Notes under the pieces: generated by a model | Told to the model about the DNA's origin: nothing | Databases searched by the model: none | What the model saw: only the letters and a program-made list of their open reading frames with translations | Part shown: positions 23,000 to 63,568 of the stretch, one piece after another | Layout of the letters: every line of letters starts with the position of its first letter | How positions within the stretch are numbered: the first letter of the stretch is position 1 | Position numbers and translations under genes: made by a program | Origin: a virus | Lineage: Duplodnaviria > Caudoviricetes | DNA length: 64,000 nt | Virus record (IMG/VR): IMGVR_UViG_3300036766_002286 | Reading direction: 5' to 3' (one strand)

Positions 23000-23045
23000 C
23001 CATGTACCGATACTAGAGGTAAGCACCTTTTGGAGAATACTTTAT

Positions 23046-33356: not shown

Positions 33357-33372
33357 AGGCTTTCTAGCTCTA

Positions 33373-43878: not shown

Positions 43879-44646
43879 TTATTTACGAGGGTTTCTGCTA
43901 TCATCCGGCATAGTAGTGCCTTCCGTGGCCGCTTTACTAAAATCAGTATAACTTGTTATTGCTTTTAGTAGATTAGCCCCGCGTAGGTTAGTGTTTTCCA
44001 GGTTTGTTCTTATCAGCTTTGCTTTAAACATGTTTGACCGCTCTAAGTCAGCATTTGTCAGATCTGCTTCTATAAATACCGCTTTTTGTAGGTCGCCTAA
44101 ACTAAGATTCGCATATGTGAGATTTGCACCTGTAAAATCTGCGTGTCGAGCTCTTATTCCTACCATAACTGCCGCAGTTAGGTCCGCTCTCGCCAGGGTT
44201 GCCTCACACATCTCTGCTTCATTAAAGTGCGCTTGGATTAAGGTAGCTTTATTCATATTTGCTCCAGTAAAGCGCGCATGGCGTGCTGATATATTAGAAA
44301 GGTTTGCAGAAAGTAGAGTTGTCCTACAAAAGTCTGCAGAATGTGTATTAGCATGAAAAAGATTTACACATGATAAGTCAGCTTCTGATAAAGATGTCAT
44401 ATACATCTGTGCTCCTGACAAGTCAGCATTAGTTAGATTGGCACCACGCATGCTTGCATGACTCAAATCAGCCCCCGCCAGGTTCGCTCCCATCAACTTA
44501 GTTTTCTCCAGATTGGTGCGCGATAGGTCCATATCATGCATATCTATATCAGGTAAGTTTAATCCAGACAGATCCGCGCCTGCTAAGCTTTTTCCTGCTT
44601 TTATATATTCCATAACATCATTTCTGTCTAATCTAAAAATATTCAT
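43879..44646 (-). CDS. Pentapeptide repeat protein (dispersed copy)
   Basis: N-cap LDRNDVMEYI, pentapeptide repeats and C-cap MPDD. Confidence 0.95.
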   Translation of the reverse strand: MNIFRLDRNDVMEYIKAGKSLAGADLSGLNLPDIDMHDMDLSRTNLEKTKLMGANLAGADLSHASMRGANLTNADLSGAQMYMTSLSEADLSCVNLFHANTHSADFCRTTLLSANLSNISARHARFTGANMNKATLIQAHFNEAEMCEATLARADLTAAVMVGIRARHADFTGANLTYANLSLGDLQKAVFIEADLTNADLERSNMFKAKLIRTNLENTNLRGANLLKAITSYTDFSKAATEGTTMPDDSRNPRK

Positions 44647-47357: not shown

Positions 47358-47908
47358 CTATACGATATTTTTCAATAGATGTCTACCAAGCGTCCCGTCC
47401 GGCATTATTGTGTCTTCTAAATTTGCTTCCATTATATTTGCAGAATAAGGTTTGCTTTTAAAAATATGGCATCCCAAAGCTGAGCGCCTTTCAAGTTTGC
47501 GCCTATTAGATTAGCCCCCACGAAATTGGCATCCGGGCAAAAAGCGTTTTCAAGGTTCACATAAGATAAATCGGCGCCTTCCAAATCAGCATTAAGGAGT
47601 CTCACCCCGATCATATTAGTTGCACTCAGATCTGCTCCGTGTAAATTAGTCCTTTCCAGCAAAGACATACATAGGTTAGCACCTTTTAACCTGCTGAAAG
47701 ATAAATTCGCGTTTCTAATAGCACAATAAGACAAGTTTGCGTAAGTAAAGTCAGTGTCTGAGAGGTTCGCGCCATACAAGTTACAGCGGGAAAAATCACT
47801 TCCAGCCAAGTCCACACCAGTAAGACAAACTCTGCCATTTTGTATAGTTTGGGCGAGCGTCATAACTTCCCCATCTCTAGTTACATATTCGATAGCTGAT
47901 TTAGTCAT
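47358..47908 (-). pseudogene. Pentapeptide repeat protein (array #21), frameshift near 47448
   Basis: N-cap EYVTRDG; the tail ANIMEANLEDTIMPDGTLGR lies in another frame, stop at 47358-47360. Confidence 0.85.
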
Positions 47909-47921
47909 TTTACTCTTGATT

Positions 47922-48539
47922 TCATGGTAAGTTATAATAGTTTAATAATCTTGTTTGCACCAAACCATCTGGCATTATTACAATTTCTAAGTTAGCTTCT
48001 TCAATGTTTGTATTTCGAAGGTTCGCTTTGAAAAATGTCACCAGCTTAAAACTAGCATACTTGAAGTTAGCTCCTCTAAAGTCTACTCCCCCAAATAAAG
48101 CTCCCTCACAGGTAACATTTTCCAGATTCACTCCTACCATCGTAGCTCCATCTAAATTGGTACTATCAAGATTTGCATTAGTCAAATTCGCACCCGTCAA
48201 GTCCGATCCGCGCATGTCAGCACAACTAAGGTTTGTGCCAGTTAAGTTCGCATCTAAGAAAGTAGCACCTCTTACGCTAGCATGTCTTAAACTAGCATAA
48301 CTAAGGTCTGCTCTATTTAATGTAGCCCCTGTTAAATTAGCATATCTTAAAAGAGCTTGATTAAGATTCGCCTCGGATAGCTTGCTATTTGCCAGATTAA
48401 CGTTGAATAGGTCAGCATTACTAAAATCAGCTCCGACTAGGTCCATATCAGCTAAACATATATTATCATCAAAGGTGTGGCGTTCTAGTACTATTATTTC
48501 CCCATCTCTGCTCAAGTATCGAACGTCTGGATTTTTCAT
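47922..48539 (-). CDS. Pentapeptide repeat protein (array #20)
   Basis: RYLSRDG ... MPDG. Confidence 0.95.
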   Translation of the reverse strand: MKNPDVRYLSRDGEIIVLERHTFDDNICLADMDLVGADFSNADLFNVNLANSKLSEANLNQALLRYANLTGATLNRADLSYASLRHASVRGATFLDANLTGTNLSCADMRGSDLTGANLTNANLDSTNLDGATMVGVNLENVTCEGALFGGVDFRGANFKYASFKLVTFFKANLRNTNIEEANLEIVIMPDGLVQTRLLNYYNLP

Positions 48540-48544
48540 TTTAT

Positions 48545-49084
48545 TTAACTGTGATTTGTCCCAGTCGGCATACTAGCACCTTCAAGTATTACGCCACGCA
48601 GGTCTGTCTGAAAAAGGTTCGCCTTAAATAATGTCGCCCAAGTCAGATTAGCATTTTGAAGAGTAGCTCCCTTAAGATCCGCCCCCACAAATTTTGTCAT
48701 CCAGCACCCAGCCCCAGTCAAATTAGCGCCTCTAAGATTCGCACCTTCAAAATTAGCGTTGTGAAGCACCGCATATTTCAAGCTAGTCGAAGTTAGGTCA
48801 GCATTTTTAAGGTCGGCTCCGTATAAATCAGCAAAATCAAGATTTGCATCAGTTAAGTTACTGTTGGTGAGCTTACTAAATTTCAAATTAACTTTACTAA
48901 AGTTAGCCCCGGTCAGATCCGACCCTTGCAAATAAGCCCCATCTAGGTTGATGTTTCTAAAATCCGCACCTTTCAGATCCATATAAGGCATACACACGTC
49001 ATCAGGGTATGGATATGATGAACCACAGAGTACTAGTTTTACTTTTAGACCGTCTCTGCTCAAATATTCATCTTTGTTTTTCAT
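48545..49084 (-). CDS. Pentapeptide repeat protein (array #19)
   Basis: EYLSRDG ... MPTG. Confidence 0.95.
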   Translation of the reverse strand: MKNKDEYLSRDGLKVKLVLCGSSYPYPDDVCMPYMDLKGADFRNINLDGAYLQGSDLTGANFSKVNLKFSKLTNSNLTDANLDFADLYGADLKNADLTSTSLKYAVLHNANFEGANLRGANLTGAGCWMTKFVGADLKGATLQNANLTWATLFKANLFQTDLRGVILEGASMPTGTNHS

Positions 49085-49130
49085 TCCACTCCCTCCTAAT
49101 ACTATTACCGCTTTTACATGTTTTAGTATA

Positions 49131-49664
49131 TTATATATGTACAGTTCCGTCTGGCATTATGCATCCCATCATTCGAGCGCCTGTAAAATCAGTTCCAATA
49201 ATATTGGCTCCACGCAAGTCAGCATATTCTAGGTTCACGTCGCGCAACGTTGCTTTAAATAAATTTGCTTTGTGAAACTCTGCTTTGTATAAATTTGCGC
49301 CACGCAGCGTTGCGTGTCTTAGGTCACAACCAGTCCAGTTGCTATGGTCACATGCAGCTTTCTCTAAGTTCGCGTAGCTCAAGTTTGCTCCCTCTAAGCA
49401 GGAACGTGCAAGCCGTGCTTCTTTCAAAGTTCCTTCAGTTAAATTGGCAGATGTTAAATTAGCACGCGCTAGCTTGGCCCCATTGAAATTAGTTTTCCTA
49501 GGGTCTCTGTCTACAAGACAAATATTATACACGTCTGTAAAACTTAAATTAGCCCCTGCTAGATCTACCCCCACTAAATGCGCACAGACTCCTCTTTCAT
49601 CTAGCTCTGAGCTTATTATTTTCCCAGTTGCGCTCGCAAACTCTGATCTAAGTTCTCTAGGCAT
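49131..49664 (-). CDS. Pentapeptide repeat protein (array #18)
   Basis: Start MPREL overlaps the upstream gene end; ends MPDGTVHI. Confidence 0.95.
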   Translation of the reverse strand: MPRELRSEFASATGKIISSELDERGVCAHLVGVDLAGANLSFTDVYNICLVDRDPRKTNFNGAKLARANLTSANLTEGTLKEARLARSCLEGANLSYANLEKAACDHSNWTGCDLRHATLRGANLYKAEFHKANLFKATLRDVNLEYADLRGANIIGTDFTGARMMGCIMPDGTVHI

Positions 49665-50196
49665 GTATAACACCATCTGGCATTATACATCCCGCCATAT
49701 AAGCACCCTTAAAGTCAGTTTCGATAATGTTGGCTCCAATCAAATTAGCCTTCTCTATGCTAGCGTACCTTAAGGTTGCTTTAAACAGATTTGCTTTAAC
49801 CAGGCTTGCCCCCTGAAGATGTGCATTTTTAAAGTTTGTATAACTCAAGTCAGCTCCTCTGAAATTACTATCATAGCACCAAGCGTACTCTAAATTTGCA
49901 CGAGCAAAATTTGCACCCTCTAAATTAGCATGTGCTATATTTGTACACCACAAATCAGCTCCCCGTAAGTCAGCATTACTTAAATTGGCATGGGGAAGAT
50001 AAGCATTTTTAAAGTTCGCATCGCAAAGGTTGCTGTGCGACAGGTCTGCTACCATCAAGTAACAATCAGTAAAATCACAACCACTCAGATCCATGTTCGC
50101 AAGTCCATGGCACACCCCAAATTCATTCACCTCTAAGCTAATCACTATACCTTCTCTGGTTGTGTACTGCGTTCTTAGTTTTTGAGATTTAGTCAT
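49657..50196 (-). CDS. Pentapeptide repeat protein (array #17)
   Basis: QYTTREG ... MPDGVIHA. Confidence 0.95.
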   Translation of the reverse strand: MTKSQKLRTQYTTREGIVISLEVNEFGVCHGLANMDLSGCDFTDCYLMVADLSHSNLCDANFKNAYLPHANLSNADLRGADLWCTNIAHANLEGANFARANLEYAWCYDSNFRGADLSYTNFKNAHLQGASLVKANLFKATLRYASIEKANLIGANIIETDFKGAYMAGCIMPDGVIHA

Positions 50197-50704
50197 GTAT
50201 GCTCCCGTCTGGCATTATGCATCCCCGCAAGTCAGCATCCATGAAATCAGCTCCAATAATATTTGCACCCGTCAAATCACTTCCCCGCATATCAGCATAT
50301 ACAAAACTACACTTAAATAAGTTTGCTTTACGAAAGTCTGTATTAGAAATAAGTGCCCAAGTAAAGCTCGCATATTTTAAGTCTGCTCCTCGAAAATTAG
50401 TATGTGAGCACCAAGCCTTATCTAAGGCTGCATAAGCTAAAGTCGCACCCTCTAAATTAGCCCCAAGAAGATGTGCGTGCGTCAAGTTGCATTTAGTCAA
50501 ATCTGCGCCAACCATAATAGTGTGGTTAAGAGACGCCTGGGATAGACCACTAGCTGTTAAGTCTGCTCCTGTTAGATTTATATAATCGAAATTTGTTCCC
50601 ACTAAATCCTTGTTCGCTAATCCTATGCAGATTCCGGCCTCATTACGATCTAGAGCAACCCTGGCCCCGGCACGAGTAGTATATTCCGCCCCCATGTTAG
50701 CCAT
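50189..50704 (-). CDS. Pentapeptide repeat protein (array #16)
   Basis: EYTTRAG ... MPDGSIHD. Confidence 0.95.
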   Translation of the reverse strand: MANMGAEYTTRAGARVALDRNEAGICIGLANKDLVGTNFDYINLTGADLTASGLSQASLNHTIMVGADLTKCNLTHAHLLGANLEGATLAYAALDKAWCSHTNFRGADLKYASFTWALISNTDFRKANLFKCSFVYADMRGSDLTGANIIGADFMDADLRGCIMPDGSIHD

Positions 50705-51155
50705 GTATGCTCCCGTCTGGCATTATACATCCATGCATTACTGTCTCATCAAAAATGCAGTTTATAATGTTTGCACCAGTTAAAACAGCCAAACTAAGAT
50801 CTGTTCTGCACATAGTTACTCCCAGCAGGTTTGCTTTCGTAAATATAGCCCCTCTACATGAAGCGTAGCTTAAATCACATCCAGCCATGTTAGCGCCAGA
50901 AAAATTCGCTCCCACCAAACTAGCCCTTTTTAAGCTCGTGTTACACATTTCTGCACCCTCAAAATTGGCATACGGCATCTTAATGTCCGCCAGCATCATA
51001 TTAGACAAGTTCACACCACGCACATTAATGTCACTCGATAAACCCACTTCAGCCCCAGACAACACCCGCACACCCTCTCTGCCTGCAACTGCGTAAGCTA
51101 AGACTTCCTCACGGGTAAACAAAATCGTATGGCGGCCAATTTTATATTTGCTCAA
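50697..51155 (-). CDS. Pentapeptide repeat protein (array #15)
   Basis: FTREEVL ... MPDGSIHG; TTG start with AAGGAG RBS. Confidence 0.93.
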   Translation of the reverse strand: MSKYKIGRHTILFTREEVLAYAVAGREGVRVLSGAEVGLSSDINVRGVNLSNMMLADIKMPYANFEGAEMCNTSLKRASLVGANFSGANMAGCDLSYASCRGAIFTKANLLGVTMCRTDLSLAVLTGANIINCIFDETVMHGCIMPDGSIHG

Positions 51156-51186
51156 TTTGCTCTCCTTTTAGACTCACTACTCATCT

Positions 51187-51203
51187 ATACTATTGCCGGC
51201 TAA
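51187..51203 (-). promoter_or_regulatory. Conserved internal promoter-like motif TTA(G/A)CC(G/C)GCAATAGTAT
   Basis: Also at 51995-52011 and 53073-53089 (partial at 49099-49111), each in an intergenic gap of the array. Confidence 0.65.
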
Positions 51204-51252
51204 CCTGCAAGACAAAGCATCTTACGCAACTGCAACACGCTCCACCACCAGC

Positions 51253-51963
51253 TTATTTATGTAAGCTCCCATCTGGCATGGTAGCACCACTAAGGTCAGC
51301 ATTTTTTAACTGTGATTTTCTTATCTCAGCCGAAGTCAAGTTTGCTCCTCTAAATACTACGTCTTCAAAAATTGCATTATGAAAATCAGCGTATTCTAGA
51401 TTAGCGTTGCTCATGTTTGTTCTAGTTAACCTACTATCCCGGAAACTGACACCAGACATGTAAGCACCTCGCACGTCTGCATCAGTTAAATTACAATTAT
51501 CTAAAGTGGAGCCCTCTAGATCCGTTATATACTTTTTTCCATCACCCGCCATATTGGCATTGGTCAAGTTAGCGCCCGTAAGGTTTGTATTTATAAGCGT
51601 AGCCCTGGTCAAATTGACGTTAATCAGGCTTGCATTTTCTAAATATGCTCCGTCTAAATCACAACCACTTAAAACACAATTGTCTAGTAATGCACCAGAC
51701 AAATTAGCATAATATAAACGTGCTTGTGTCAGATCACAGTTTGATAGATTAGCACCCCCCAACTTTGTCTCAACCAGATTGGCTTGCGACAGATTTGAGC
51801 CTAAAAAATTTACTCCTTGTAATTTCATTTCGCTCAAATCCATACCACTTAAACTCATACCAGCTGTGATCATATCCAGCACATCAGTACGGCTAGGCTG
51901 TTTTGCCTCGAAGCTCTTATTTTTGTCCAAAATTTCTTCCCGATTAAGTTTCCTATATATCAC
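51253..51963 (-). CDS. Pentapeptide repeat protein (array #14)
   Basis: LNREEIL / SRTDVL ... MPDGSLHK. Confidence 0.95.
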   Translation of the reverse strand: MIYRKLNREEILDKNKSFEAKQPSRTDVLDMITAGMSLSGMDLSEMKLQGVNFLGSNLSQANLVETKLGGANLSNCDLTQARLYYANLSGALLDNCVLSGCDLDGAYLENASLINVNLTRATLINTNLTGANLTNANMAGDGKKYITDLEGSTLDNCNLTDADVRGAYMSGVSFRDSRLTRTNMSNANLEYADFHNAIFEDVVFRGANLTSAEIRKSQLKNADLSGATMPDGSLHK

Positions 51964-52059
51964 TATGCTCTCCTTTTAATCCCTCTAGTTACATATACTA
52001 TTGCGGGCTAATCTACAAGAGAAACTGTTTTATATAGTAATAAATCATAGACCATCGTC

Positions 52060-52578
52060 TTACCTACAGATACTCCCATCTGGCATGGTGCATCCTCTCA
52101 AAAGAAAAGCCACAGTTAGGTCAGCACCTACAATATTAGCGCCGATCATGCTACTGTATTTCAAATCAGCTTTAGTTAGATTTGCACCATTTAGGTTTGC
52201 TTTATTGAAATTTGCTTTGTAAAAACTCGCTTTAGATAAATTGGCTCTCCTGAGGTCAGCTCCTTGAAAGTTGCAAGCTACACACCAAGCATCCTCTAAA
52301 TTTGCAGCACTTAAATCCGCTCCCTCAAAATTAGCATTCGCAAGGTCGGTGTACATTAAATTAGCACCAATTAAAGTAGCACCATGCAGGTCAGCCTGAT
52401 TCAAATTAGCATAGGTAAAATTAGCCCCCGTCAGGCCAGAGTGCGATAAATCTGCTCCAAATAAGGCTGTTTCACTAAAGTCGCAGCCCACTAAATCCAT
52501 GTTTGCTAACAATATATGACCTGATGTTTTATCTTTATATAAGTCAACTAAAACACCATCTCTGGTTTTATACTGCAT
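52060..52578 (-). CDS. Pentapeptide repeat protein (array #13)
   Basis: QYKTRDG ... MPDGSICR; start 52578 or 52602. Confidence 0.95.
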   Translation of the reverse strand: MQYKTRDGVLVDLYKDKTSGHILLANMDLVGCDFSETALFGADLSHSGLTGANFTYANLNQADLHGATLIGANLMYTDLANANFEGADLSAANLEDAWCVACNFQGADLRRANLSKASFYKANFNKANLNGANLTKADLKYSSMIGANIVGADLTVAFLLRGCTMPDGSICR

Positions 52579-52594
52579 CCCAGCCCCACCTCCT

Positions 52595-53035
52595 CTACGC
52601 ATATTTGCGCACCATTGTTTCTATCCACGCCCTCTGTTCCTGAATTCCCCCATTCGGCATTATACACCCAAGCGCCTCAACTCCATCAAAATTACAATCT
52701 ATTACATTGGCTCTAAAAAAGTTTGCCTTCACTATATTCGCACCTTCAAAACTACACCTGAATAAGTTAGCTTTTTCAAACTCAGTCCCACAGCATCGTG
52801 AATAACTACAATCAGCAGAGCGCAAGTCAACCCCACTCAAATCGCTTCCGTTTAGTCTAGCTCCCTTTAAGTTAGCAAAACTTAAATTAGCCCCCGTAAA
52901 ATCGCAATAAGACATTTTAACATTTTCTAAATTACAATAAGATAAGTCTATCCCACGCACGTTTATCCCCATAAGGTCGCCCGCATCATCGACTATAAAC
53001 GACAAAATTTCTTCTCTACTGTATTTTCGAAACAC
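52595..53035 (-). CDS. Pentapeptide repeat protein (array #12)
   Basis: YSREEIL ... MPNG. Confidence 0.93.
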   Translation of the reverse strand: MFRKYSREEILSFIVDDAGDLMGINVRGIDLSYCNLENVKMSYCDFTGANLSFANLKGARLNGSDLSGVDLRSADCSYSRCCGTEFEKANLFRCSFEGANIVKANFFRANVIDCNFDGVEALGCIMPNGGIQEQRAWIETMVRKYA

Positions 53036-53118
53036 TATTCACCTCCAGGTCTCCCACTCGTCTATATCGAATATACTATTGCGGGTTAATTAAAACTAGT
53101 AGCTTATATCCAGCTATT

Positions 53119-53910
53119 TTACTCGAATTTACTTCCATCAGGCATAATCGCGCCCGCCACCTCAGCGAATTCGAAGTCACAATCGGTCATTATCGCACCT
53201 GTAAAATCAGCGTCTCTTAAGTCCGTCCGTCGAAAATCTATCTTGTCCAGATTAGCATAAATAAAGTTTGCCTTCACAAGTCTTGCATTATTGAATCTTG
53301 CCGAAGTAATCGTGGATTTAGTAAAACTACAATACTCGCACCTACCCCCAGCAAAAGTTACCTCTAACATGCGCGCGCCATCAAGTTGCCCATAAGACAC
53401 GTCTGCTTGCATTAAATTACTTCTAATAAGTTCCGCACCCCGTAAATCAGCCTTATGTAAAACTGCTGCCACAAAACTACAATCTATAATAGTTATTTTG
53501 GATAAGTCAGCTTCCGACAGCACGCTACCTGTAAAGTCTGTCTTGTTAAGATTTGCTTTACTAAATTTTGTTTTAACAAGGTTTGCATTACTGAATCTTG
53601 TTTCAGCTAGAGTAGTTCCTGTAAAATTAGCACTATGACCCTTAGTCGAATCAAAACTTGCACCCCGCAGGTCCGCTCCTTCAAAATTAGCACTAGATAA
53701 AATTAATTCTTTCAAATTTACACAACTAAGATTAGCCGACCTAAAATTAACACCAGTAAAGTTAACTTTATTTTCACTTAAAGCAACCCCACGGAAGTCG
53801 CAATGAGACAAGTCAAGATTAGCAGCACTGAATCCCCACACACCACAAGATAAAAAAGCAAAACCCCCATGTCTGTCAATATATTTTATATCAGTTCTCG
53901 TAGCTTTCAT
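53119..53910 (-). CDS. Pentapeptide repeat protein (array #11)
   Basis: KYIDRHG ... MPDGSKFE. Confidence 0.95.
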   Translation of the reverse strand: MKATRTDIKYIDRHGGFAFLSCGVWGFSAANLDLSHCDFRGVALSENKVNFTGVNFRSANLSCVNLKELILSSANFEGADLRGASFDSTKGHSANFTGTTLAETRFSNANLVKTKFSKANLNKTDFTGSVLSEADLSKITIIDCSFVAAVLHKADLRGAELIRSNLMQADVSYGQLDGARMLEVTFAGGRCEYCSFTKSTITSARFNNARLVKANFIYANLDKIDFRRTDLRDADFTGAIMTDCDFEFAEVAGAIMPDGSKFE

Positions 53911-53911
53911 G

Positions 53912-54415
53912 TTAGTTCCCCTGATCAAAATAATAAAAAGGATAGACAGTGCCGTCGGGCATAATAGCACCTCTCATATGGCAATTAATAAAGGTGGTGC
54001 CAAGAATGTTTGCGCCTTTCAAATTGGCATACTCCAAGACCGCAGAACCAGCCAAAGTAGCACCATATAAATTCACTTTAAATAGGTTTGCCCGTCTAAA
54101 ACTTACGGTATCAAGCACAGCGAAAGCAAGGTTAGCTCCTTGAAGTACTATATCTTCGCAACGCACCCTCTCAAGGGTTGCGCCTGTCAAATCCGCACCC
54201 TCTAAATCAGCTCTGTACATGGCAGCCCCGACCAACTTAGCCCCGTGTAGATTGGCGCCCTGTAGTTTTAGATAGCTAAGGTTAGTAAAACTTAAATCAG
54301 CATAGCTGAGGTCACAATCACGCAGGTCTTTACCTAGCCAAGGTCCACCCCACGGCAGTTCACATGAAGTACCTTCTCGGTCAATATATTTTATGTTTCC
54401 TCTTATATATTTCAT
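53912..54415 (-). CDS. Pentapeptide repeat protein (array #10)
   Basis: KYIDREG ... MPDGTVY. Confidence 0.95.
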   Translation of the reverse strand: MKYIRGNIKYIDREGTSCELPWGGPWLGKDLRDCDLSYADLSFTNLSYLKLQGANLHGAKLVGAAMYRADLEGADLTGATLERVRCEDIVLQGANLAFAVLDTVSFRRANLFKVNLYGATLAGSAVLEYANLKGANILGTTFINCHMRGAIMPDGTVYPFYYFDQGN

Positions 54416-54473
54416 GTTCTCTCCCTTATATTATTCTCCATTTTCACAGTTGTGTAATGCAGTCATTATAATT

Positions 54474-54971
54474 CTATTTATGTACGCTACCATCCGGCAT
54501 AACCATATCTGCCATGTTTGCCCTTGTAAAATCAGCGCCCATAATATTTGCACCCAGCATTGATGCTTCCCGCAAGTCAGCTCCTATAAAACTAGCTTTG
54601 AATAAGTTTGCTTTGGTTAAATCTGCAGCATATAAAGTTGCACCCAAAAAGTTACAATAACTAAGGTCCGCTCCTTCAAATATTGTGCGTTTGCACCCAG
54701 CATGGCTGAAGTCAGCCCCATGACAGTTTGCCCCGACTAGAATCGCACCCTTGAGATTGGCACGAGCAAAACAGCCATCTATAAGACAAGATCCTGTCAA
54801 ATCAACTTTCAGCATGACGGCGCGAGAAAAGTTAGCCCCGCGCAACGCGCAACGACTTAGGTCAGAAAAAGGAAGATTACACTCAGTAAGATTAATATTT
54901 TCTAAGTTTTCATCCATTCTTACATATGCAGGCTTCATATTTTTATCATAATAGAAAACGTCTGATTTCAC
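54474..54971 (-). CDS. Pentapeptide repeat protein (array #9)
   Basis: FYYDKN ... MPDGSVHK. Confidence 0.95.
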   Translation of the reverse strand: MKSDVFYYDKNMKPAYVRMDENLENINLTECNLPFSDLSRCALRGANFSRAVMLKVDLTGSCLIDGCFARANLKGAILVGANCHGADFSHAGCKRTIFEGADLSYCNFLGATLYAADLTKANLFKASFIGADLREASMLGANIMGADFTRANMADMVMPDGSVHK

Positions 54972-55019
54972 TGGGTTTTCTCCAGTAATTTATCATCATT
55001 CAATGCAATCTCTAAAATA

Positions 55020-55439
55020 TTACACATGCTTACTCCCGTCCACCATGATAGCACCTCTAAGTTCAATAGCGCGCTCGAAATCACAGTTTACTACATTAGC
55101 GCCAGTTAAGTCGGCATTCTGAAAATACGCCCCGCCTACTTCTGTTTCAAGCATATTAGCACCCTTTAGATTAGCGCTGCTCAAGTTACTGCTAGTAAAG
55201 TTTGTTTTAAATAAATTTGCTTTTTCAAATATTCCACCATTAAGATATCCACCTGTAAAATCGGCACTAGTCAGGTCTGCTCCACTAAAGTTTGTAAACA
55301 TACAACTTGCAAAAATAAAGCCAGCACCGCACAACACCGCCCCCCGCATGCTACAATAGGAGAAATCAACTCCTGCAAAGCCAGTATTCGCTAAAACACC
55401 CGGGTTTCCTTCCCTCTCAATATAGTTGATATTTTTCAT
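55020..55439 (-). CDS. Pentapeptide repeat protein (array #8)
   Basis: NYIEREG ... MVDGSKHV. Confidence 0.93.
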   Translation of the reverse strand: MKNINYIEREGNPGVLANTGFAGVDFSYCSMRGAVLCGAGFIFASCMFTNFSGADLTSADFTGGYLNGGIFEKANLFKTNFTSSNLSSANLKGANMLETEVGGAYFQNADLTGANVVNCDFERAIELRGAIMVDGSKHV

Positions 55440-55999
55440 AAGGTTTTGTCGCCGCGCTGAAACACACTATAACGGCTAAAGAAATCAAAAGTATAAATAC
55501 TGCCATCCGGCATTGTTGCTCTTTCCAAGCTAGCGCCTGTAAAATCAGCGCACCCGATGTTCGCGCCCTCTAAATTAGCACGGCTTAGATCCGCGCAACG
55601 TAGATCTGTTTTATAAAGGTTTGCTTTAAAAAAGTTTACATTATATAAGTGTGCATTTTCAAATATAGCACCCTCAAGATTTGCTCCTTCAAAGCTAGCG
55701 CTTCCACACACAGCCCCACTGAGGTTTGCGCCCCGCAAGTTCACGCCGCACAAATCAGCACCGGTCAGGTCTGTTTCCCTTAAGTTAGCAGCGCTAAGAT
55801 TTGCACCCCGAAGTATACTTCTAAACATGTTTGCTTTACAAAAATTTACTTCACTTAAATCAGCCCTGGTCAGCTCAGCTCCTTGAAAATCAGCACCCCG
55901 CAGATCTTCGTCCGACCGGGCTCGTCCCCACACCAGTTCCCGCAAAACACCCTCACGGTCTATATATTTGACATTAGTTTGCATTGCTGTGCTCTCCAA
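55436..55999 (-). CDS. Pentapeptide repeat protein (array #7)
   Basis: KYIDREG ... MPDGSIY. Confidence 0.95.
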   Translation of the reverse strand: MESTAMQTNVKYIDREGVLRELVWGRARSDEDLRGADFQGAELTRADLSEVNFCKANMFRSILRGANLSAANLRETDLTGADLCGVNLRGANLSGAVCGSASFEGANLEGAIFENAHLYNVNFFKANLYKTDLRCADLSRANLEGANIGCADFTGASLERATMPDGSIYTFDFFSRYSVFQRGDKTL

Positions 56000-56001
56000 A
56001 C

Positions 56002-56511
56002 CTACTCATGTCTGCTCCCATCTGGCATTATAGCTCCCAAAAGGTTGCAACCAGTAAAGTTTGTGCCCGCTATATCTGCACCAAAAAAACTAGCTCCCGT
56101 ACAATTGGCATTTGTAAAATCGCTACCCTTAAGGTTAGCCTTCGTAAAGACACAATTTTCTAAATTTGCCTTAAACAAGTTAGCCCCTTGTAAATGAGCG
56201 CCCAATAAGCTTGCATCAAACATAGACACCCCACTAAGATCACAGTGAGCAAGATTTGCCTTATCAAGCAATATGAAAGGCATGTCGGCCCCATGAAAGT
56301 TAGCTCCGACCAAATTAGCTCCTTCAAGATTAGCATTCTCTAAATTAGCACAGGTGAAGTTAGCACCTCTAAGGTCTCTTCCATTAAGAGTCACACTAAA
56401 TAAGTAAGCCCAAGATAAATCAATTCCAACAAGGTTAGTACCCTTTTTTACCATAACAGTTTTCCCTGCCTTATCAAGATATATAAAATCATACTTTGCC
56501 CCATTATACAT
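56002..56511 (-). CDS. Pentapeptide repeat protein (array #6)
   Basis: IYLDKAG ... MPDGSRHE. Confidence 0.95.
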   Translation of the reverse strand: MYNGAKYDFIYLDKAGKTVMVKKGTNLVGIDLSWAYLFSVTLNGRDLRGANFTCANLENANLEGANLVGANFHGADMPFILLDKANLAHCDLSGVSMFDASLLGAHLQGANLFKANLENCVFTKANLKGSDFTNANCTGASFFGADIAGTNFTGCNLLGAIMPDGSRHE

Positions 56512-57178
56512 GTATACTCCCGTTTGGCATGATGGTTTCAGTTAGAATTGCATCATGTAGCCTCGAGATTTTCAAGCTCGCACCGAAAAGATTTGCATGA
56601 GAAAAATTTGTGCAAGTAAAAGTCCCTTTAGTCAAGTTAGCTTTCTCCAAGTCAGCATTCGAGAAATCAGCATTTGTTGAATCAGCGCCCTCTAAATCAG
56701 CTCCCCGCATGTCTGCAAAACTAAAATCTGCTTCAGCTAAGACTGCCTCGCACAAGAATGTTCGATGCTTATCATCCGCACCACACATAATAGCATTGCT
56801 AAAACAGGCCTGGTATAAATAAGCCTTACTAAAACTTGCTTTAGTTAAATTAGCATAAGTGAAACTACAACCGATGGCTTGTACTTTATATAAGACAGCT
56901 CCAGCTAAGTGAGCATTCGAGAAATTAGCAGACATTAGATTTGTCTCAGAAAGATTGGCTTTAGTTAGATCACAGTTTGACATATCAGCATTTTTACAAT
57001 TAGCACCCGCCAAGTCCGCTCCCGCCAAAGATAAACCTTTAAAATCTATGTCATGTAAATCAAGATCCCATAATACAGCATCTGCCAAGCTTTCTTTGTT
57101 TTCTATAGCATCAAGCACTTCAGATCTAGTAAATATCCGATCGTCAGGATGTCTAAAGTCGTAGCTACCTTCAGGCAT
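56504..57178 (-). CDS. Pentapeptide repeat protein (array #5)
   Basis: FTRSEVL ... MPNGSIHV. Confidence 0.95.
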   Translation of the reverse strand: MPEGSYDFRHPDDRIFTRSEVLDAIENKESLADAVLWDLDLHDIDFKGLSLAGADLAGANCKNADMSNCDLTKANLSETNLMSANFSNAHLAGAVLYKVQAIGCSFTYANLTKASFSKAYLYQACFSNAIMCGADDKHRTFLCEAVLAEADFSFADMRGADLEGADSTNADFSNADLEKANLTKGTFTCTNFSHANLFGASLKISRLHDAILTETIMPNGSIHV

Positions 57179-57671
57179 GTATACTCCCATCTGGCATAAC
57201 TGCACCCCTAAGGTTAGTATTAGTAAAGTTACAACCCTCTATATATGCACCAAAAAAATTAGCATACCTACAATCGGCAGATGAAAAATCAGCGCCCTTA
57301 AGGTTAGCCTCCGTAAAATCAGCCTCGTCCGCACGTACGCCTCTTAACGTAGCTCCTTGTAAATTAGCGCCCCGCAAATCTGCTCGCTGCATATCAGCAT
57401 CCGTTAGATCACAATTATGTAGATCTGCTCTATTAAATGAAGTGTCCATCAAGACAGCCGCAATCATACTTGATCCACTAAGGTCAGCGCCGCTCAGGTC
57501 AGCGGCTATAAAGTCAGCACGCGCCAAACGGGCGCCCATAATATCTCTTCCACTGAGATCACAACCAGATAACTCACAACCAGATAAATCAATTCCCACC
57601 AAACTAACACCCTTTTTTAAAACAGCAGCCTTATCATTACTATCAATATAGTCAATATCTTGATTTTTCAT
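57171..57671 (-). CDS. Pentapeptide repeat protein (array #4)
   Basis: DYIDSND ... MPDGSIHA. Confidence 0.95.
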   Translation of the reverse strand: MKNQDIDYIDSNDKAAVLKKGVSLVGIDLSGCELSGCDLSGRDIMGARLARADFIAADLSGADLSGSSMIAAVLMDTSFNRADLHNCDLTDADMQRADLRGANLQGATLRGVRADEADFTEANLKGADFSSADCRYANFFGAYIEGCNFTNTNLRGAVMPDGSIHA

Positions 57672-57841
57672 ATTAGGTAAACACTCCCATCTAGCATAAT
57701 AGCGTCTTTAAGGTTTCTTCCCTCGAAGTTTACTTCAGTAAAACTAGTATAAGATAAATCAATTCCCTCAAGACTTTCGTTTTTTCTCAAAACATGTGGG
57801 TTATCATCCTCATCAGTATATTCAATATCATGATCATTCAT
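57668..57841 (-). CDS. Minimal pentapeptide repeat protein (array #3, 57 aa)
   Basis: EYTDEDD N-cap, ~5 pentapeptides, MLDGSVY; coupled to both neighbours. Confidence 0.75.
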   Translation of the reverse strand: MNDHDIEYTDEDDNPHVLRKNESLEGIDLSYTSFTEVNFEGRNLKDAIMLDGSVYLI

Positions 57842-58607
57842 AGATACTCCCATCGGGCATAGTAGCCCCACTCAAGTTAGCACCCTTAAATACTATACCC
57901 GCAAATTGGTCCATACTTAAACTAACTCCCCTAAAAACCCCGCCAATTAAATTAGCATAGCTAGAATGACACTTGGTTAAATTTGCCCCTCTTAGCTTTG
58001 CACCCTCAAACCTGGTATTTGCAAGGTCTGTTTTAGATAGGTTCGCTTCGCATAAAGTAGCATACTTAAAATTTGCATTGCTTAAATTACAGTCTTCTAG
58101 GTCCGCTAGAGTTAGGTTCGCGCGGGTGAAATCAGCCCCTGCTAGGTGTCTTTCTCGTATATCTGCCCTTGTTAAATTGGCATCGCGAAAATTAGTGTAA
58201 GTAAATATCTTCTTCCAACTCGCGTCGTTTTTGTCCCCAATCATAATTGCACCAACTAAGATAGCTTTTTGGAAATTGGCATCTCTGATGTCTGTTTTAG
58301 TCATATTGGCTTCAAAAAAATTAGCATTTTTTGCAACGCATTCTCGCATATTAGCTCCAGCTAAACTACAATTAGACATGTTAGCCGAATCGAGACTAGC
58401 TCTTAGTAGCTGCGCACGAGTCAAGTCACACCTAACCAGATTAGCATTTTGTAGTTGAGTTGCCCCCAACATAGCCCCGGACAGGCTAATCCCAGAAAAA
58501 TCAATACCATTTAAATCAAGTCCCGTCAAATTACAATCCGCCAAAGTACCTCTGTTAGCTATAATTTCTAAAACCTGTTCACGAGATAAGCTCTTGCCGT
58601 TTTTCAT
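57834..58607 (-). CDS. Pentapeptide repeat protein (array #2)
   Basis: LSREQVL ... MPDGSIYE. Confidence 0.95.
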   Translation of the reverse strand: MKNGKSLSREQVLEIIANRGTLADCNLTGLDLNGIDFSGISLSGAMLGATQLQNANLVRCDLTRAQLLRASLDSANMSNCSLAGANMRECVAKNANFFEANMTKTDIRDANFQKAILVGAIMIGDKNDASWKKIFTYTNFRDANLTRADIRERHLAGADFTRANLTLADLEDCNLSNANFKYATLCEANLSKTDLANTRFEGAKLRGANLTKCHSSYANLIGGVFRGVSLSMDQFAGIVFKGANLSGATMPDGSIYE

Positions 58608-58743
58608 ATAAATATTCTCCCTTTAGTGTTTGTAAAGCCCAGTTTAACTAAATTTACCATATGAACACTTGCTGCTAGCACGTGATAAACAATCATTATT
58701 AGTATGTTTTTATGATTTAAGACCATACAATGCTCAAAGCGAA

Positions 58744-59243
58744 CTATTTATGAATACTCCCATCTGGCATAATAGCGCCAAAAAGTTTACAACCAGTAAA
58801 GTCGCATCCCTCTATATCTGCTCCTTTAAAATTAGCACCACACAAGTCAGCACCTGTGAAATCAACTTTTTTAAGATTGGCACCAGTTAAGTCAACATAA
58901 TCTAGAATTGCATAAACTAATTTCGCACTATACATACTAGCCCCAATCAAAGTAGTCCCGTACAGCTCAGCTTCAGTTAAATTTGCGTAATTAAGGTTTG
59001 CTTTATTTAAGGTTACTTGCGACAGGTTTGTTTTAATCATGGTAGCAAAAGTTAAATCAGCACCTTCAAGGTCTGTGTGTGCTAAGTCACTCGCATCAAA
59101 GTTACAACCTCTAAGATCTCTACCCACAAGCTTTGCATTGTGTATCAGACAATACGATAAATCAATTCCTACAAGATTAGCATCCCCCGCAAAATAGCAA
59201 ACTTTCCATCTATATCCATATACTTAACATCAAATTTTGTCAT
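58744..59243 (-). pseudogene. Pentapeptide repeat protein (array #1), frameshift in a G5 run near 59185
   Basis: AAGGAGG RBS plus MTKFDVKYMDIDG in one frame; DANLVGIDLSY...MPDGSIHK in another. Confidence 0.85.
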
Positions 59244-59405
59244 TACACCTCCTTTTCTAGCTATTTTATTCTAGCTCGATTTTTCTGTATTCACCCGGCC
59301 CTTTCGTCCTACTTGTTTTCCGTATATAGAGGTACTATAAGGGCAAATCTTCGTTTATATATTCTATAAAATATATAACAGCCCTACCCAAATATTTCAA
59401 GATAC

Positions 59406-59433
59406 TTGCGTCTGACATCCTCGCCCCAATAGT
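59406..59433 (+). promoter_or_regulatory. Putative promoter TTGCGT-16bp-AATAGT for the rightward small-gene operon
   Basis: Recurring motif in the divergent gap. Confidence 0.55.
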
Positions 59434-59470
59434 ACAGCTATACTACAAAAATTATAAACGGAGGTTTGTC

Positions 59471-61924: not shown

Positions 61925-62491
61925 ATGAATCAAAAAACTGAATACGTAAATACTTACACAACTAAGGACGGTACGACAGTCGAGCTGGTCCGTGACCCGC
62001 ACACCGATATCATATATCTATCTAGAAGGGAGCTGGCTGGCGCAGATTTTAGTAAAGCTAATTTGCGAAATGTCGATATGTCTCATAGTTTTTTGGACGG
62101 CGCTAACTTCACTTGTGCAGATCTCAAGTATGCTAACCTAGAGGGAGCTACTTTAACTAATGCAAACCTATCTCAAGTAGACCTTACTGTGGCAAACTTA
62201 ACCAATACAAACCTGTCAGGTGCAAATCTAAACTCTGCTAATTTATCCGCCAGTAATCTACGTTTCGCATATTTGGTAGGCGCAACCCTAATTAAAGCTA
62301 ATTTAACTGAAGCGAAACTTACTGATACTATGTGTCTTAGCTGTGATTTCACTGCTGCTGATCTGTCTTATGCTAAACTTAAAAGAACGGATTTCACCTG
62401 TGCTAACTTAACAAATGCTGTCTTTGTAGGCGCCCGTCTAATTGAGCCCATTTTTAATGACGCCATTATGGTCAATAATAAATTCAATTAA
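61925..62491 (+). CDS. Pentapeptide repeat protein (plus-strand cluster #1)
   Basis: TYTTKDG N-cap; ends ARLIEPIF. Confidence 0.95.
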   Translation: MNQKTEYVNTYTTKDGTTVELVRDPHTDIIYLSRRELAGADFSKANLRNVDMSHSFLDGANFTCADLKYANLEGATLTNANLSQVDLTVANLTNTNLSGANLNSANLSASNLRFAYLVGATLIKANLTEAKLTDTMCLSCDFTAADLSYAKLKRTDFTCANLTNAVFVGARLIEPIFNDAIMVNNKFN

Positions 62492-62516
62492 TATAAAACT
62501 ACTAGGAGAACACACC

Positions 62517-63089
62517 ATGGATCAGGAAATTGAGAATATAACTACTTACACAACCAGGCAAGGCGTGGTTGTAGAGCTACAATATGATAACGAATCCCTC
62601 GATGCAGGTCCTCAGCTAGCCAATATGGATCTGGCTGGAGCGAACTTTAATAATACTGATTTACATTTTGCGGACTTGTCACATAGCAATATGGTAGGCT
62701 GCAACCTATCTAATGCTTATATAATGGGCGCCACACTTGTTGGTGTTAATTTGACTAATGCTAATCTAACTAACGCTGATTTAATAGACACTAATTTAAC
62801 CAATGCAATCCTTGAGGGCGCTAATCTAACCGACGCCACCATGTCTGAGAGTAATTTAAAAAACGCTAATTTAACTAAAGCCATCCTAATTAGAGCTAAC
62901 TTAACTGAAGCTAAACTTACTAATACTGTATGCATAGCTTCAGATTGCACTAATGCTAGCTTTGCTTACGCTAAACTTAAAAGAACCGACCTCACCAGAG
63001 CTAATTTAACGGGCGCCGATTTACAAGAAGCTCGTCTAATTGAGCCCATTTTTACTGACACCATTTTAAGTAATACTATATTTAACTAA
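62517..63089 (+). CDS. Pentapeptide repeat protein (plus-strand cluster #2)
   Basis: GGAG RBS; TYTTRQG; ends ARLIEPIF. Confidence 0.95.
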   Translation: MDQEIENITTYTTRQGVVVELQYDNESLDAGPQLANMDLAGANFNNTDLHFADLSHSNMVGCNLSNAYIMGATLVGVNLTNANLTNADLIDTNLTNAILEGANLTDATMSESNLKNANLTKAILIRANLTEAKLTNTVCIASDCTNASFAYAKLKRTDLTRANLTGADLQEARLIEPIFTDTILSNTIFN

Positions 63090-63103
63090 CAGGAGAATAC
63101 ACC

Positions 63104-63568
63104 ATGGGTAGAAAAATCGAGTATACAGACGCCAAAGGGGTATCTCAAACTCTTGACTCAGAAAAATCCCACGCTAACAAGGATTTGACCAAAGCATCAT
63201 TAGCTAGTGCGAATTTAGTTAAATTGGATCTTATTGGAGCTACTCTATCCAGGGCCAATCTATCTAAAGCTCTCCTATTTGGTTCCAACTTGTCTTATGC
63301 TACTCTTATCGCAACAGACCTCTCGAACGCCAATTTATCCGGCCCCTCAAAAAAGGGAGCATTGCTGATTAAGGCCAATCTTAATGAAGCTAATCTAGAG
63401 AACGCTAAATGCGCCGGTTGTGACTTCACTGATGCTGACTTGTCTTATGCTAATCTTAATGGCGCCGATTTTTCCCAAACAAACCTCACTAATGCCAATC
63501 TAGCCGGCGCCAGGTTGCATGAAACTGTTTTCACAGATGCCATATTAACTAACGTCAAATACAGCTAG
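63104..63568 (+). CDS. Pentapeptide repeat protein (plus-strand cluster #3)
   Basis: EYTDAKG; ends ARLHETVF. Confidence 0.95.
   Translation: MGRKIEYTDAKGVSQTLDSEKSHANKDLTKASLASANLVKLDLIGATLSRANLSKALLFGSNLSYATLIATDLSNANLSGPSKKGALLIKANLNEANLENAKCAGCDFTDADLSYANLNGADFSQTNLTNANLAGARLHETVFTDAILTNVKYS

Follow-up and report, generated by a model that had tools for sequence, protein, structure and literature searches.

A tandem array of 21 diverged pentapeptide-repeat genes within a larger family on a 616-kb replicon

HetL of Nostoc sp. PCC 7120 (PDB 3DU1, NF047416) is a stand-alone cytoplasmic pentapeptide-repeat protein (PRP) of about 240 amino acids, whose N-cap is helical and whose long Rfr helix carries insertions. 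It is encoded by a single gene of a cyanobacterial developmental circuit and acts by protein–protein competition, not by DNA mimicry. MfpA, Qnr, AlbG, McbG and EfsQnr are topoisomerase-protecting cytoplasmic proteins with the Rfr fold, 180–220 amino acids in length, that occur singly. MfpA, Qnr, AlbG and EfsQnr dimerise through a C-terminal helix to form a DNA-length rod, McbG and AlbG are immunity factors that protect their producers, and PipB and PipB2 are PRP-containing effectors. Acquired immunity genes are known to occur as diversified tandem arrays. Np275 and Np276 of Nostoc punctiforme (2J8I, 2J8K) are small stand-alone PRPs from adjacent genes (PMC8145042). Cyanobacterial genomes, for example that of Cyanothece 51142, hold tens of PRP paralogues, mostly dispersed and many of them exported or membrane-bound (PMC8145042 and general knowledge). 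In the Parachlamydiaceae, F-box and BTB-LRR families show lineage-specific amplification and have been read as host-interaction repertoires (PMC4209131). In the literature that we searched, we found no published description of a PRP array as large as the one reported here.

The array lies in a 64-kb window, by which we mean the whole stretch of DNA that was analysed. An open reading frame listing and a register-based scan identified 21 consecutive head-to-tail PRP genes on the minus strand at 47432–59243 (about 12 kb) and six more outside the array (Table 1), the same counts as in the original prediction. PRP genes make up 95% of the array's length and 23% of that of the whole window. The family extends past the window, with six further PRPs in the adjoining 9.5 kb, and the array is part of a far larger PRP family on a 616-kb replicon. 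Every full-size member scanned matched Pfam PF00805 (E values of 6e-30 to 2e-49), and the array proteins range from a stub of 57–67 amino acids to 263 amino acids. No transmembrane or signal-like segment was found in the PRPs (maximum 19-residue Kyte-Doolittle hydropathy of 1.57), nor any recognisable secretion signal, and Pfam and NCBIfam scans, the latter of ten members, detected no domain other than the pentapeptide/beta-helix repeat families. The description of stand-alone beta-helix PRPs with conserved caps and diverged surfaces that lack signal peptides is borne out. Three members call for qualification: g01 has no MPDG cap, g19 is a head-plus-tail stub, and three-frame translation placed g21 in two frames, split at a G5 run near 59188–59192.

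Table 1. Positions and properties of the PRP genes and the putative promoter region in the window
Feature	Coordinates	Strand	Length (aa)	Properties
Putative promoter region	59244..59470			Divergent intergenic region upstream of array and of a plus-strand run of small genes
g21	58744..59243	-		First array gene; subgroup B; head ATG 59243, body from 59127; body PF00805 E 2e-32
g20	57834..58607	-	257	Long type; subgroup C; helical N-cap and two loop insertions; Pfam E 2e-49
g19	57668..57871	-	57-67	Stub; N-cap-like head (40% identity to g18 head) and MLDGS tail, hardly any repeats; no Pfam match
g18	57171..57671	-	166	Subgroup B; pI 4.45; overlaps g19 by 4 nt
g17	56504..57205	-	224-233	Long type; subgroup C; net charge -14
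g16	56002..56511	-	169	Subgroup B; ATG within g17 cap codons (8-nt overlap)
g15	55436..55999	-	182-187	Type I head YIDREG; modelled short-type representative; AF2 pLDDT 88.4
g14	55020..55439	-	139	Head YIEREG; tail IMVDGS; overlaps g15 by 4 nt
g13	54474..54971	-	165	
g12	53912..54415	-	167	Head YIDREG
g11	53119..53910	-	263	From ATG 53910, same length in Logan gene call; type I head and long body; Pfam E 7e-43
g10	52595..53035	-	146	Subgroup D; REEIL helical head; short body
g09	52060..52602	-	172-180	Subgroup A; 47% identity to g05
g08	51253..51963	-	236	Long type; subgroup C; Pfam E 4e-49
g07	50697..51155	-	152	Subgroup D
g06	50189..50704	-	171	Subgroup A; 8-nt overlap junction
g05	49657..50196	-	179	Subgroup A; 8-nt overlap junction; Pfam E 2e-35
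g04	49131..49676	-	177-181	Subgroup A; 8-nt overlap junction
g03	48545..49084	-	179	Head YLSRDG; tail MPTG
g02	47922..48539	-	205	Head YLSRDG
g01	47432..47908	-	158	Last array gene; head YVTRDG; Pfam E 6e-30
g24	43879..44646	-	255	Dispersed; helical head; NCBIfam HetL 130 bits, below cut-off
g23	39094..39693	-	199	Dispersed; MPDGS tail
g22	32652..33431	-	259	Dispersed
g25-g27	61925..63568 (61925-62491, 62517-63089, 63104-63568)	+		Subgroup E; 48-51% identical; type I heads; tail ends F/Y-N/S

The PRP array is real, old and selected. Collapse of repeats during assembly was ruled out because the most similar array copies are no more than 77–80% identical (across 135–142 nt) and because an independent Logan assembly of the one run that contains the array has it on one contig of 58,927 bp (depth about 40x), without a difference anywhere in the array. 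The run probably represents the source sample itself, which makes this a check by another assembler but not by another sample; the sequence was found in one sample only. The tightly packed minus-strand run looks like an operon, with junction gaps of −38 to +136 nt, overlaps of 8 nt at four junctions and of 4 nt at two, and a GGAG-type site or coupled start retained by each gene. Where several of the genes meet, the codons for the cap (ATG CCA GAY GGG AGC ATA CAT G) double as the start region of the following gene, with its ATG and a GGGAG ribosome-binding site, so each duplicated unit carries its own start and is coupled translationally to its neighbour. We list the divergent intergenic region as a putative promoter because a consensus scan found promoter sites no more frequently than in shuffled sequence.

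Comparison of the genes shows that the array grew in place through tandem duplication of units of one or two genes. The subgroups follow one another in the orders B-C-stub-B-C-B and D-A-C-D-A-A-A, copies of the DNA repeat families D11 and D16 lie 526–1573 bp apart (about one or two genes), and members of subgroups A, B, D and E find their best match in a neighbour in this genome, not in any of 227 external PRPs. The predicted expansion in situ therefore stands for at least four subgroups; monophyly of all 27 genes is not demonstrable because consensus repeats dominate the scores, and 15 of the 33 members score at least as high against a generic external PRP as against any paralogue. The copies are old, with 24–51% amino acid identity between paralogues and dS of 1.0–2.5 or saturated between the closest ones. 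The array is therefore not a recent accordion, and the idea of a library that expands and contracts found no recent copies in its favour. Selection was assessed by separating core from outward-facing residues. The three exposed positions (dN of 0.55–0.74) evolve approximately 2.5 times faster than the core positions (i and i−2; dN of 0.22–0.36), and both classes evolve more slowly than synonymous sites. Identity is 63–69% at fold-determining positions versus 29–37% at surface positions.

AlphaFold models of one short-type and one long-type protein (g15 and g20; pLDDT of 88.4 and 86.6) are both capped Rfr beta-helices. The g15 model has about seven coils and a beta-hairpin N-cap, the g20 model combines a helical N-cap with loops, and neither has a C-terminal helix. 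The array PRPs are thus predicted to be right-handed four-sided beta-helices of about 5–11 coils with a conserved hydrophobic core and end caps. Two kinds of head were found: a beta-hairpin with the motif Y-x-x-[RK]-x-G (type I) and a REEVL-like alpha-helix (type II). The type I motif is present in 15 of the 33 PRPs of this genome and in 4 of the 227 external PRPs, the latter being chance matches, which indicates that this head is specific to this genome among the sampled proteins. The tail that members share, M-P-D-G-S-x-H, closes the helix. The MPDG cap is not peculiar to the array, as it also terminates 26 of the 227 unrelated PRPs.

Foldseek searches ranked consensus solenoids, Np275/Np276 and HetL ahead of QnrB1 and MfpA. 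For the short type, the top matches were Np275/Np276 and the consensus solenoids based on them (4YCQ and others; E values of 8e-12, for a consensus solenoid, to 1e-10; about 40% identity). [quoted passage not shown] For the long type, the best PDB match was HetL (E value of 4.7e-15, TM-scores of 0.64/0.69, 28% identity), which was also among the best NCBIfam matches for all scanned members. However, the scanned members score 80–130 bits against a family cut-off of 260 bits, and a hundred or more tandem paralogues stand here in place of a single gene. The cyanobacterial sets share with this genome many diverged paralogues, many ending in an MPDG-type cap, but here the genes occupy 23% of the 64-kb window, in runs of up to 21, and none has a signal sequence.

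The carrier is a 616-kb contig with Acidimicrobiia-like housekeeping genes, and its backbone is absent from all sampled actinobacterial genomes, phages and plasmids. The five nearest Acidimicrobiia genomes have just 1–4 Pfam matches each, and the copy-number comparison with related contigs found no PRP genes at the syntenic loci of backbone relatives, which points to a lineage-specific PRP expansion. We tentatively propose, at somewhat less than an even chance, that the array is a diversified cytoplasmic protein-binding repertoire for conflict between host and replicon. Its products would form a repertoire of rigid scaffolds whose surface differs from member to member, and each might have a protein partner of its own, which it would bind competitively or as a decoy, on the model of HetL. 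The site of action would be the cytoplasm, in the interplay of this replicon with a cell of Acidimicrobiia type, genes of which the replicon carries. This role is proposed by analogy with HetL and with the way in which amplified families of repeat proteins generally serve in conflicts, and the location because the PRPs contain no hydrophobic segment. The Parachlamydiaceae families similarly amplify one repeat scaffold to a large share of the genome, in tandem blocks of old, diverged copies. They differ in fold and organisms, and their eukaryote-type adaptor domains indicate a target pathway, whereas the array PRPs have no added domain.

Specific DNA mimicry is neither required by nor visible in these data. 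It is unlikely that, like MfpA, Qnr, AlbG and McbG, the PRPs act as B-DNA look-alikes that sequester type II topoisomerases, nucleases or DNA sensors. The fold is the same, with QnrB1, MfpA, AlbG and EfsQnr among the Foldseek matches (E values of 1e-5 to 1e-8), most members are mildly acidic and the long type has loop insertions, as Qnr does. However, all ten members tested fell far below the NCBIfam cut-offs (43–65 against 240 bits for Qnr; 28–52 against 360 for MfpA), both models lack the C-terminal dimerisation helix and a single helix of seven coils spans no more than some 35 Å. Charge is also uneven, with pI values of 4.1–8.1 and net charges of −14 to +2, several members lying between 0 and +2. 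The window contains no topoisomerase or mfpB-like GTPase gene, and 100 or more distinct surfaces would be superfluous for a single enzyme target. The missed cut-offs, the missing helix and the pI range therefore leave the predicted mimicry of DNA on gyrase unsupported.

Delivery out of the cell is decidedly unlikely as well. The carrier would then be a reduced, ultrasmall episymbiont on an Acidimicrobiia host, into which the PRPs would be exported or injected like PipB and PipB2. Backbone relatives (contigs of 0.13–0.8 Mb) carry type IV pilus genes, SecA, SSB and RuvB, one of them is labelled Candidatus Paceibacterota, and many genes look Acidimicrobiia-derived. Amplified repeat-protein families are also typical of host-dependent bacteria such as the Parachlamydiaceae (PMC4209131). 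Against this, the PRPs lack export signals, no secretion system was found within the window and the pilus cluster that the relatives have at the syntenic site is missing here. PipB/PipB2 NCBIfam scores were far below cut-off, and about 160 kb of DNA from this lineage contained no tRNA gene, which would be odd for a small cell genome.

We consider it highly doubtful that each PRP neutralises a different proteinaceous toxin or gyrase poison of competitors, like the members of orphan immunity-gene arrays. McbG and AlbG provide a precedent, AlbG is among the structural matches, the tandem diversified layout matches that of acquired immunity genes and the gene immediately downstream of the array is that of a MacB-type ABC exporter, in broken form. 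However, no toxin, microcin or polymorphic-toxin gene was found in or beside the array, no PADLOC defence model matched, and the members arose by internal duplication, not piecemeal acquisition. A functionless relic of runaway tandem duplication, as the stub g19, frameshifted g21, capless g01 and broken neighbours (ABC ATPase, MacB and half of hisS) might suggest, is very improbable given that 19 of 21 frames are intact at 50–75% amino acid divergence, that fold positions are conserved, that every gene keeps its start signal and that dN is below dS in both residue classes.

Smaller PRP arrays occur in other metagenome contigs: L108 (nine genes in 20 kb), L098 (six), L128 (five) and L127 (four). 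These also consist of head-to-tail, paralogous stand-alone PRPs with a conserved head particular to each array, and the tail in L098, MPDGTIHD, is as here. They differ from the array in their heads and are two- to fivefold smaller, with 35–46% identity to it through the repeats only.

An all-frame ORF listing combined with a register-based window scan found 21 successive minus-strand ORFs with pentapeptide periodicity, from g21 (the first gene) to g01 (the last), and six further pentapeptide-repeat protein (PRP) ORFs elsewhere in the window (see the table). This reproduces exactly the original count of 27, and the array as first observed stands in full. The array ends at 59243 because the head of g21, MTKFDVKYMDIDGKF, begins there. 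Within the array, 95% of the sequence belongs to PRP genes, and over the whole window 23%. Three members depart from the full gene structure: the stub g19 (57–67 aa) consists of a head and a tail and is nearly free of repeats, g01 has no C-cap and g21 lies in two frames over a G5 run. Every full-size member tested matched Pfam family PF00805 (E 6e-30 to 2e-49), the stub being the only tested member without a match. Hydropathy plots of the array PRPs contained no hydrophobic segment resembling a signal peptide or membrane anchor, and Pfam and NCBIfam scans of the members tested found no domains other than pentapeptide or β-helix repeat families, bearing out the earlier statement that signal peptides and catalytic domains are lacking. 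The array is also overlain by plus-strand ORFs, which are mirror frames that such a repeat is expected to produce. Rfam gave no match on either strand between 44 and 64 kb, and promoter and terminator scans returned no more sites than shuffled sequence.

Whether the array might be an assembly artefact, a concern raised with the original prediction, can be answered in the negative. The nearest array copies share at most 77–80% DNA identity over 135–142 nt, so the assemblers met no near-identical repeats that could be merged or multiplied. By protein look-up, the array was also recovered from an independent Logan assembly, on a contig of 58,927 bp. This contig agrees with the window without difference over 20,540 bases and, at a depth of about 40x, spans the whole 12-kb array unbroken, with 0 differences. 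The sequence is present in one DNA sequencing run only, from a sediment metagenome and probably the source sample, and no RNA run is listed as containing it; the Logan contig therefore represents a second assembler and not a second sample. Apparent joints in Logan contigs were rejected as rearrangements: they are 22–47-nt matches of paralogous cap regions on other contigs of equal depth. We also observed that a 35-nt stretch at the g19/g18 junction has an exact inverted copy about 23 kb downstream, beyond the window end. Six more PRP genes lie on the Logan contig within 9.5 kb past that end.

Alignment of all 27 proteins revealed a common build of a head, a variable number of pentapeptides and a tail. 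Among 743 in-register pentapeptides, position i-2 is alanine in 65%, position i is leucine, phenylalanine or methionine in 95% and position i-1 is asparagine or aspartate in 62%. A PRP is defined by eight or more contiguous A(D/N)LXX-type pentapeptides; the full-size members tested qualify, and g19 does not. We built AlphaFold (AF2) models of two members from paralogue alignments. The model of g15, of the short type (pLDDT 88.4), is predicted to have a β-helix of about seven coils, preceded by an N-terminal β-hairpin (residues 10–13 and 19–22) that bears the motif Y-I-D-R-E-G. The model of g20, of the long type (pLDDT 86.6), is predicted to have an N-terminal α-helix (residues 9–17), a longer β-helix than g15 and two inserted loops, of which one is modelled at low confidence. 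In both models there is a one-residue strand per five residues, Foldseek matches them to solved PRPs with probability 1.00, and the chain finishes at MPDGS-x-H or in a disordered tail. The predicted fold is the quadrilateral right-handed β-helix with four pentapeptides per coil. In the Foldseek searches, the short type lay nearest to consensus solenoids from Np275/276, followed by HetL and Np275/276, and the long type lay nearest to HetL (E 4.7e-15, TM 0.64/0.69); QnrB1, MfpA and AlbG came several orders of magnitude lower in both. A prediction of a g15 homodimer (two copies, with alignment A2) scored 0.00, which is evidence neither for nor against a dimer. The head motif Y-x-x-[RK]-x-G occurs in 15 of the 33 PRPs of this genome, with four chance matches among 227 external PRPs. 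M-P-D-G closes 26 of those 227, cyanobacterial and Anaerolineales ones included, and this tail is, judging from the sequences compared, generic and not peculiar to the array.

The original prediction proposed the array PRPs as candidate DNA mimics or decoys that could titrate host DNA-binding proteins, topoisomerases among them, with Qnr and MfpA as known DNA mimics acting on gyrase. Solved topoisomerase-protecting PRPs, such as Qnr, MfpA and AlbG, dimerise tail to tail through a C-terminal helix, reaching a DNA-like length. The AF2 model of g15 contains no helix beyond its last coil, and such a dimerising helix is absent from the predicted structures of both g15 and g20. Ten members tested against the curated NCBIfam cut-offs scored 42–65 bits for Qnr (NF033086; cut-off 240), 28–52 bits for MfpA (NF000349; 360) and 59–87 bits for the PipB/PipB2 models (274/354), and sub-threshold matches to HalA (20–43 bits against 250) arose from the repeats alone. 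HetL gives the long type its best structural match, yet the ten members likewise reached only 80–130 bits with the HetL model (NF047416), below its family cut-off of 260. Membership of g08 in the Alr5209 family, the sole model passed (113 positions), was rejected as the sum of four repeat matches. None of four PRPs tested with PADLOC matched a known defence-protein model. As the Qnr and MfpA cut-offs are missed and the C-terminal helix is lacking, the resemblance is one of fold and not of family. Considered as bulk charge only, the proteins range in pI from 4.1 to 8.1 and in net charge from -14 to +2, and the 64-kb window contains no topoisomerase gene. Together, these data do not bear out DNA mimicry; we leave it a modest probability, since function can converge on the PRP scaffold.

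The genes are tightly packed, with intergenic distances of -38 to +136 nt. At four junctions (g17/g16, g07/g06, g06/g05 and g05/g04), the cap codons of the upstream gene read ATG CCA GAY GGG AGC ATA CAT G, in which GGGAG forms a ribosome-binding site and CAT-G gives the ATG of the next gene, with an overlap of 8 nt. Two more junctions overlap by 4 nt, and the remaining ones have a GGAG-type site in a short spacer. Cap codons that double as the ribosome site and start of the next gene offer a neat route to long coupled arrays through duplication. All-against-all protein comparison defined five subgroups: A (g04, g05, g06 and g09; about 47% identity), B (g16, g18 and g21; about 47%), C, of the long type (g08, g17 and g20; 34–38%), D, short with a helical head (g07 and g10; 37%), and E (g25, g26 and g27; 48–51%). 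Along the array their order is B-C-stub-B-C-B and then D-A-C-D-A-A-A, and the DNA repeat families D16 and D11 are spaced 526–1573 bp apart, or about one to two genes. This order and spacing indicate growth by tandem duplication of one- and two-gene units. When 227 external PRPs are included in the comparison, every member of subgroups A, B, D and E matches a paralogue from its own genome best, which supports the expansion in situ that had been predicted. For 15 of the 33 members, however, the long or idiosyncratic ones included, generic external PRPs score as high as or higher than paralogues. These scores are dominated by consensus repeats, so sequence does not demonstrate a single origin of all 27, and the support for the predicted expansion covers the four subgroups.

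We then compared codons within four subgroups, separating core columns (i and i-2) from exposed ones (i-1, i+1 and i+2). Core columns had a dN of 0.22–0.36 and an amino-acid identity of 56–69%, and exposed columns a dN of 0.55–0.74 and an identity of 29–37%, whereas dS between subgroup paralogues was 1.0–2.5 or saturated. The array copies are therefore old, and the low dN of the core indicates that the β-helix fold is under purifying selection. The surfaces have changed about 2.5 times faster than the core, yet more slowly than synonymous sites. In this contrast of core with outward-facing residues, which had been suggested at the outset, dN/dS was thus not near 1 throughout, dN lying below dS in both classes. 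At such divergence, the codon comparison neither shows nor excludes positive selection. In a gene accordion, as in poxvirus K3L, recent expansion under selection leaves near-identical tandem copies that vary between close relatives. The expanding and contracting accordion originally envisaged is not what we see: dS is 1.0–2.5 or saturated, and the closest copies share at most 51% protein identity and, over short stretches, at most 80% DNA identity. Growth in place is supported by the subgroup matches and repeat spacing, but its recency is contradicted by a dS near saturation.

Searches for comparable arrays covered several collections. The five Acidimicrobiia genomes nearest by UvrA have only one to four Pfam PRP matches each. 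Among phages, PRPs occur in 459 of 50,697 records, with at most 11 match places per record among those listed, where one gene can hold several. In JGI metagenomes, a subgroup A query found a best match of 46% identity among the matches listed, and the same scan found at least four contigs with smaller PRP arrays, in which the N-terminal head is conserved and particular to the array (see the table). Because of these smaller arrays, the layout seems to be a recurrent but undescribed one, of which the present array is by far the largest among the matches listed. A word-index search with g05 found no orthologue; its best match (44% identity) covered repeats only, and many matches were PRP+DUF5758 proteins. 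The A2 profile matched 208,937 of 1.84 billion representatives at E ≤ 0.001, of which the best 150 are giant multi-repeat proteins, and the search is uninformative on where the head motif occurs. An exact 41-mer was not found in IMG/VR. Neither the literature searched nor the 2021 PRP review (PMC8145042) describes a comparable PRP array, in agreement with the original statement that no contiguous array of this size was known.

The window proteins lie on a contig of 616,293 bp that mixes two kinds of genes. One kind is Acidimicrobiia-like: the order uvrB-uvrA-uvrC is that of G001, a 1.3-Mb Acidimicrobiaceae metagenome genome, and identities to G001 are 78% for UvrA, 73% for UvrB and 58% each for UvrC, TyrRS and RF1, the closeness of TyrRS equalling that of G001 to another Acidimicrobiia genome. 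The G+C content of the window is 41%, compared with 49–72% in those Acidimicrobiia genomes. We also noted that the RF1-type release factor has S-A-T at the stop-codon-recognition tripeptide, where three Acidimicrobiia RF1s have P-A-T or P-V-T, and an intact GGQ. The other kind is a backbone block encoding a NusA-like KH protein, a divergent DnaB-type helicase, UvrD, a TM0106-type nuclease and thioredoxin, which is syntenic with contigs of 0.13–0.8 Mb and 29–71% G+C that also have genes for type IV pili, SSB, SecA, RuvB and a PMT-type glycosyltransferase. Sampling of about 1,000 Actinomycetota genomes found the helicase in none of them, and it has no relative in IMG/VR (by profile) or in phage or plasmid collections, and the nuclease is absent from the five nearest Acidimicrobiia genomes; on these counts (0 of about 1,000 and 0 of 5) we set aside an ordinary Acidimicrobiia chromosome. 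The carrier may be an ultrasmall symbiotic cell or a giant non-viral element. One backbone relative is in a bin labelled Candidatus Paceibacterota, and no tRNA genes were found in the window and about 95 kb of additional lineage DNA (about 160 kb in total). With its housekeeping genes nesting inside Acidimicrobiia, the carrier may be as interesting as the array. Four backbone relatives have 0 PRP genes at the syntenic site (counted on 22-kb loci), and the PRP expansion is therefore specific to this branch. In four relatives, a type IV pilus cluster of 8 kb (PilB, PilC, PilT, PilM and others) separates the NusA-like gene from the helicase; in the window, these genes are direct neighbours.

The reading that these results support best is that the array is a multigene family that is old, under selection and translationally coupled, and whose products are capped Rfr scaffolds with diversified surfaces. 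That the copies are intact and translationally coupled and have diverged surfaces argues that surface diversity on a fixed β-helix is what selection has favoured. HetL and the amplified repeat families of host-dependent microbes suggest, by analogy, that the array proteins would most probably be used as a repertoire of protein binders, which may serve the replicon in its dealings with an Acidimicrobiia-type partner. A further-reaching idea, which we regard as rather unlikely, is that the array is one block of well over 100 PRP genes, taking up more than one-tenth of the DNA of a 616-kb replicon of an undescribed kind. This replicon would have taken up repair and translation genes from its host and would be either an ultrasmall symbiont of Acidimicrobiia or a giant extrachromosomal element of non-viral nature. 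The PRPs would then form a combinatorial set of rigid decoys, every one with its own host protein as target, and be the main host-handling tool, much as giant viruses and intracellular bacteria use their amplified repeat families, here with the Rfr fold. PRPs are among the commonest bacterial repeat proteins and have a known role in only a handful of cases. About a quarter of a 64-kb stretch devoted to them amounts to a natural experiment, and if partners of the binder repertoire are found, dozens of related scaffold–target pairs would come at once. The scale of the PRP expansion, which extends beyond the window, the design of the array junctions and the odd carrier make the array worth following up.

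Several neighbouring genes deserve mention. Some genes beside the array are broken: an ABC ATPase is split by a frameshift, a MacB permease is divided between two ORFs, one for the periplasmic domain and one for FtsX, and of hisS the C-terminal half alone remains. These are not one assembler's errors, because the Logan contig has the same sequence. Two TnpB/Cas12f1-like genes, whose proteins share 81% identity and whose DNA shares 80% over 1.6 kb, are diverged copies of one IS-type element. Three tandem overlapping paralogues, Ala-rich and ending in G-D-L-S, stand at the head of a series of small, tightly coupled genes that diverges from the array; neither they nor a pair of longer paralogues matched Pfam, PHROG or PADLOC models. 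A small Fic-domain gene matches the PADLOC candidate defence models PDC-S04 (E 3.5e-8) and SoFic.

Positions of PRP genes and other features, in window coordinates unless another contig is named
Feature	Position	Strand	Description
PRP array	47432-59243	minus	g01–g21
Further PRP ORFs	32652, 39094, 43879	minus	ORF listing and register scan
Further PRP ORFs	61925, 62517, 63104	plus	ORF listing and register scan
D16 repeats	56007, 57176, 58749		DNA repeat family
35-nt stretch	57641-57675		g19/g18 junction
Inverted 35-nt copy	43570-43604		Logan contig record
TnpB/Cas12f1-like genes	5545-7161, 37293-38936	minus	538 and 547 aa
Paralogue pair	11877-13553, 14577-16265	plus	558 and 562 aa, 40% identical
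RF1-type release factor	17942-19012	minus	
NusA-like gene/helicase site	22854-23831		pilus cluster of relatives missing
Broken genes	33851-34489, 45217-47269	minus	
Split ABC ATPase	47015-47269/46518-47042		
Fic-domain gene	39887-40348	plus	
Three tandem paralogues	59471-60524	plus	117–123 aa, 32–44% identical
Array on metagenome contig L108	9239-17654		9 genes in 20 kb; conserved head, e.g. MEIKNKNGKVIKT
Array on metagenome contig L098	216-5242		6 genes in 6.5 kb; tail MPDGTIHD as in this array
Array on metagenome contig L128	4653-8476		5 genes
Array on metagenome contig L127	577-8025		4 genes
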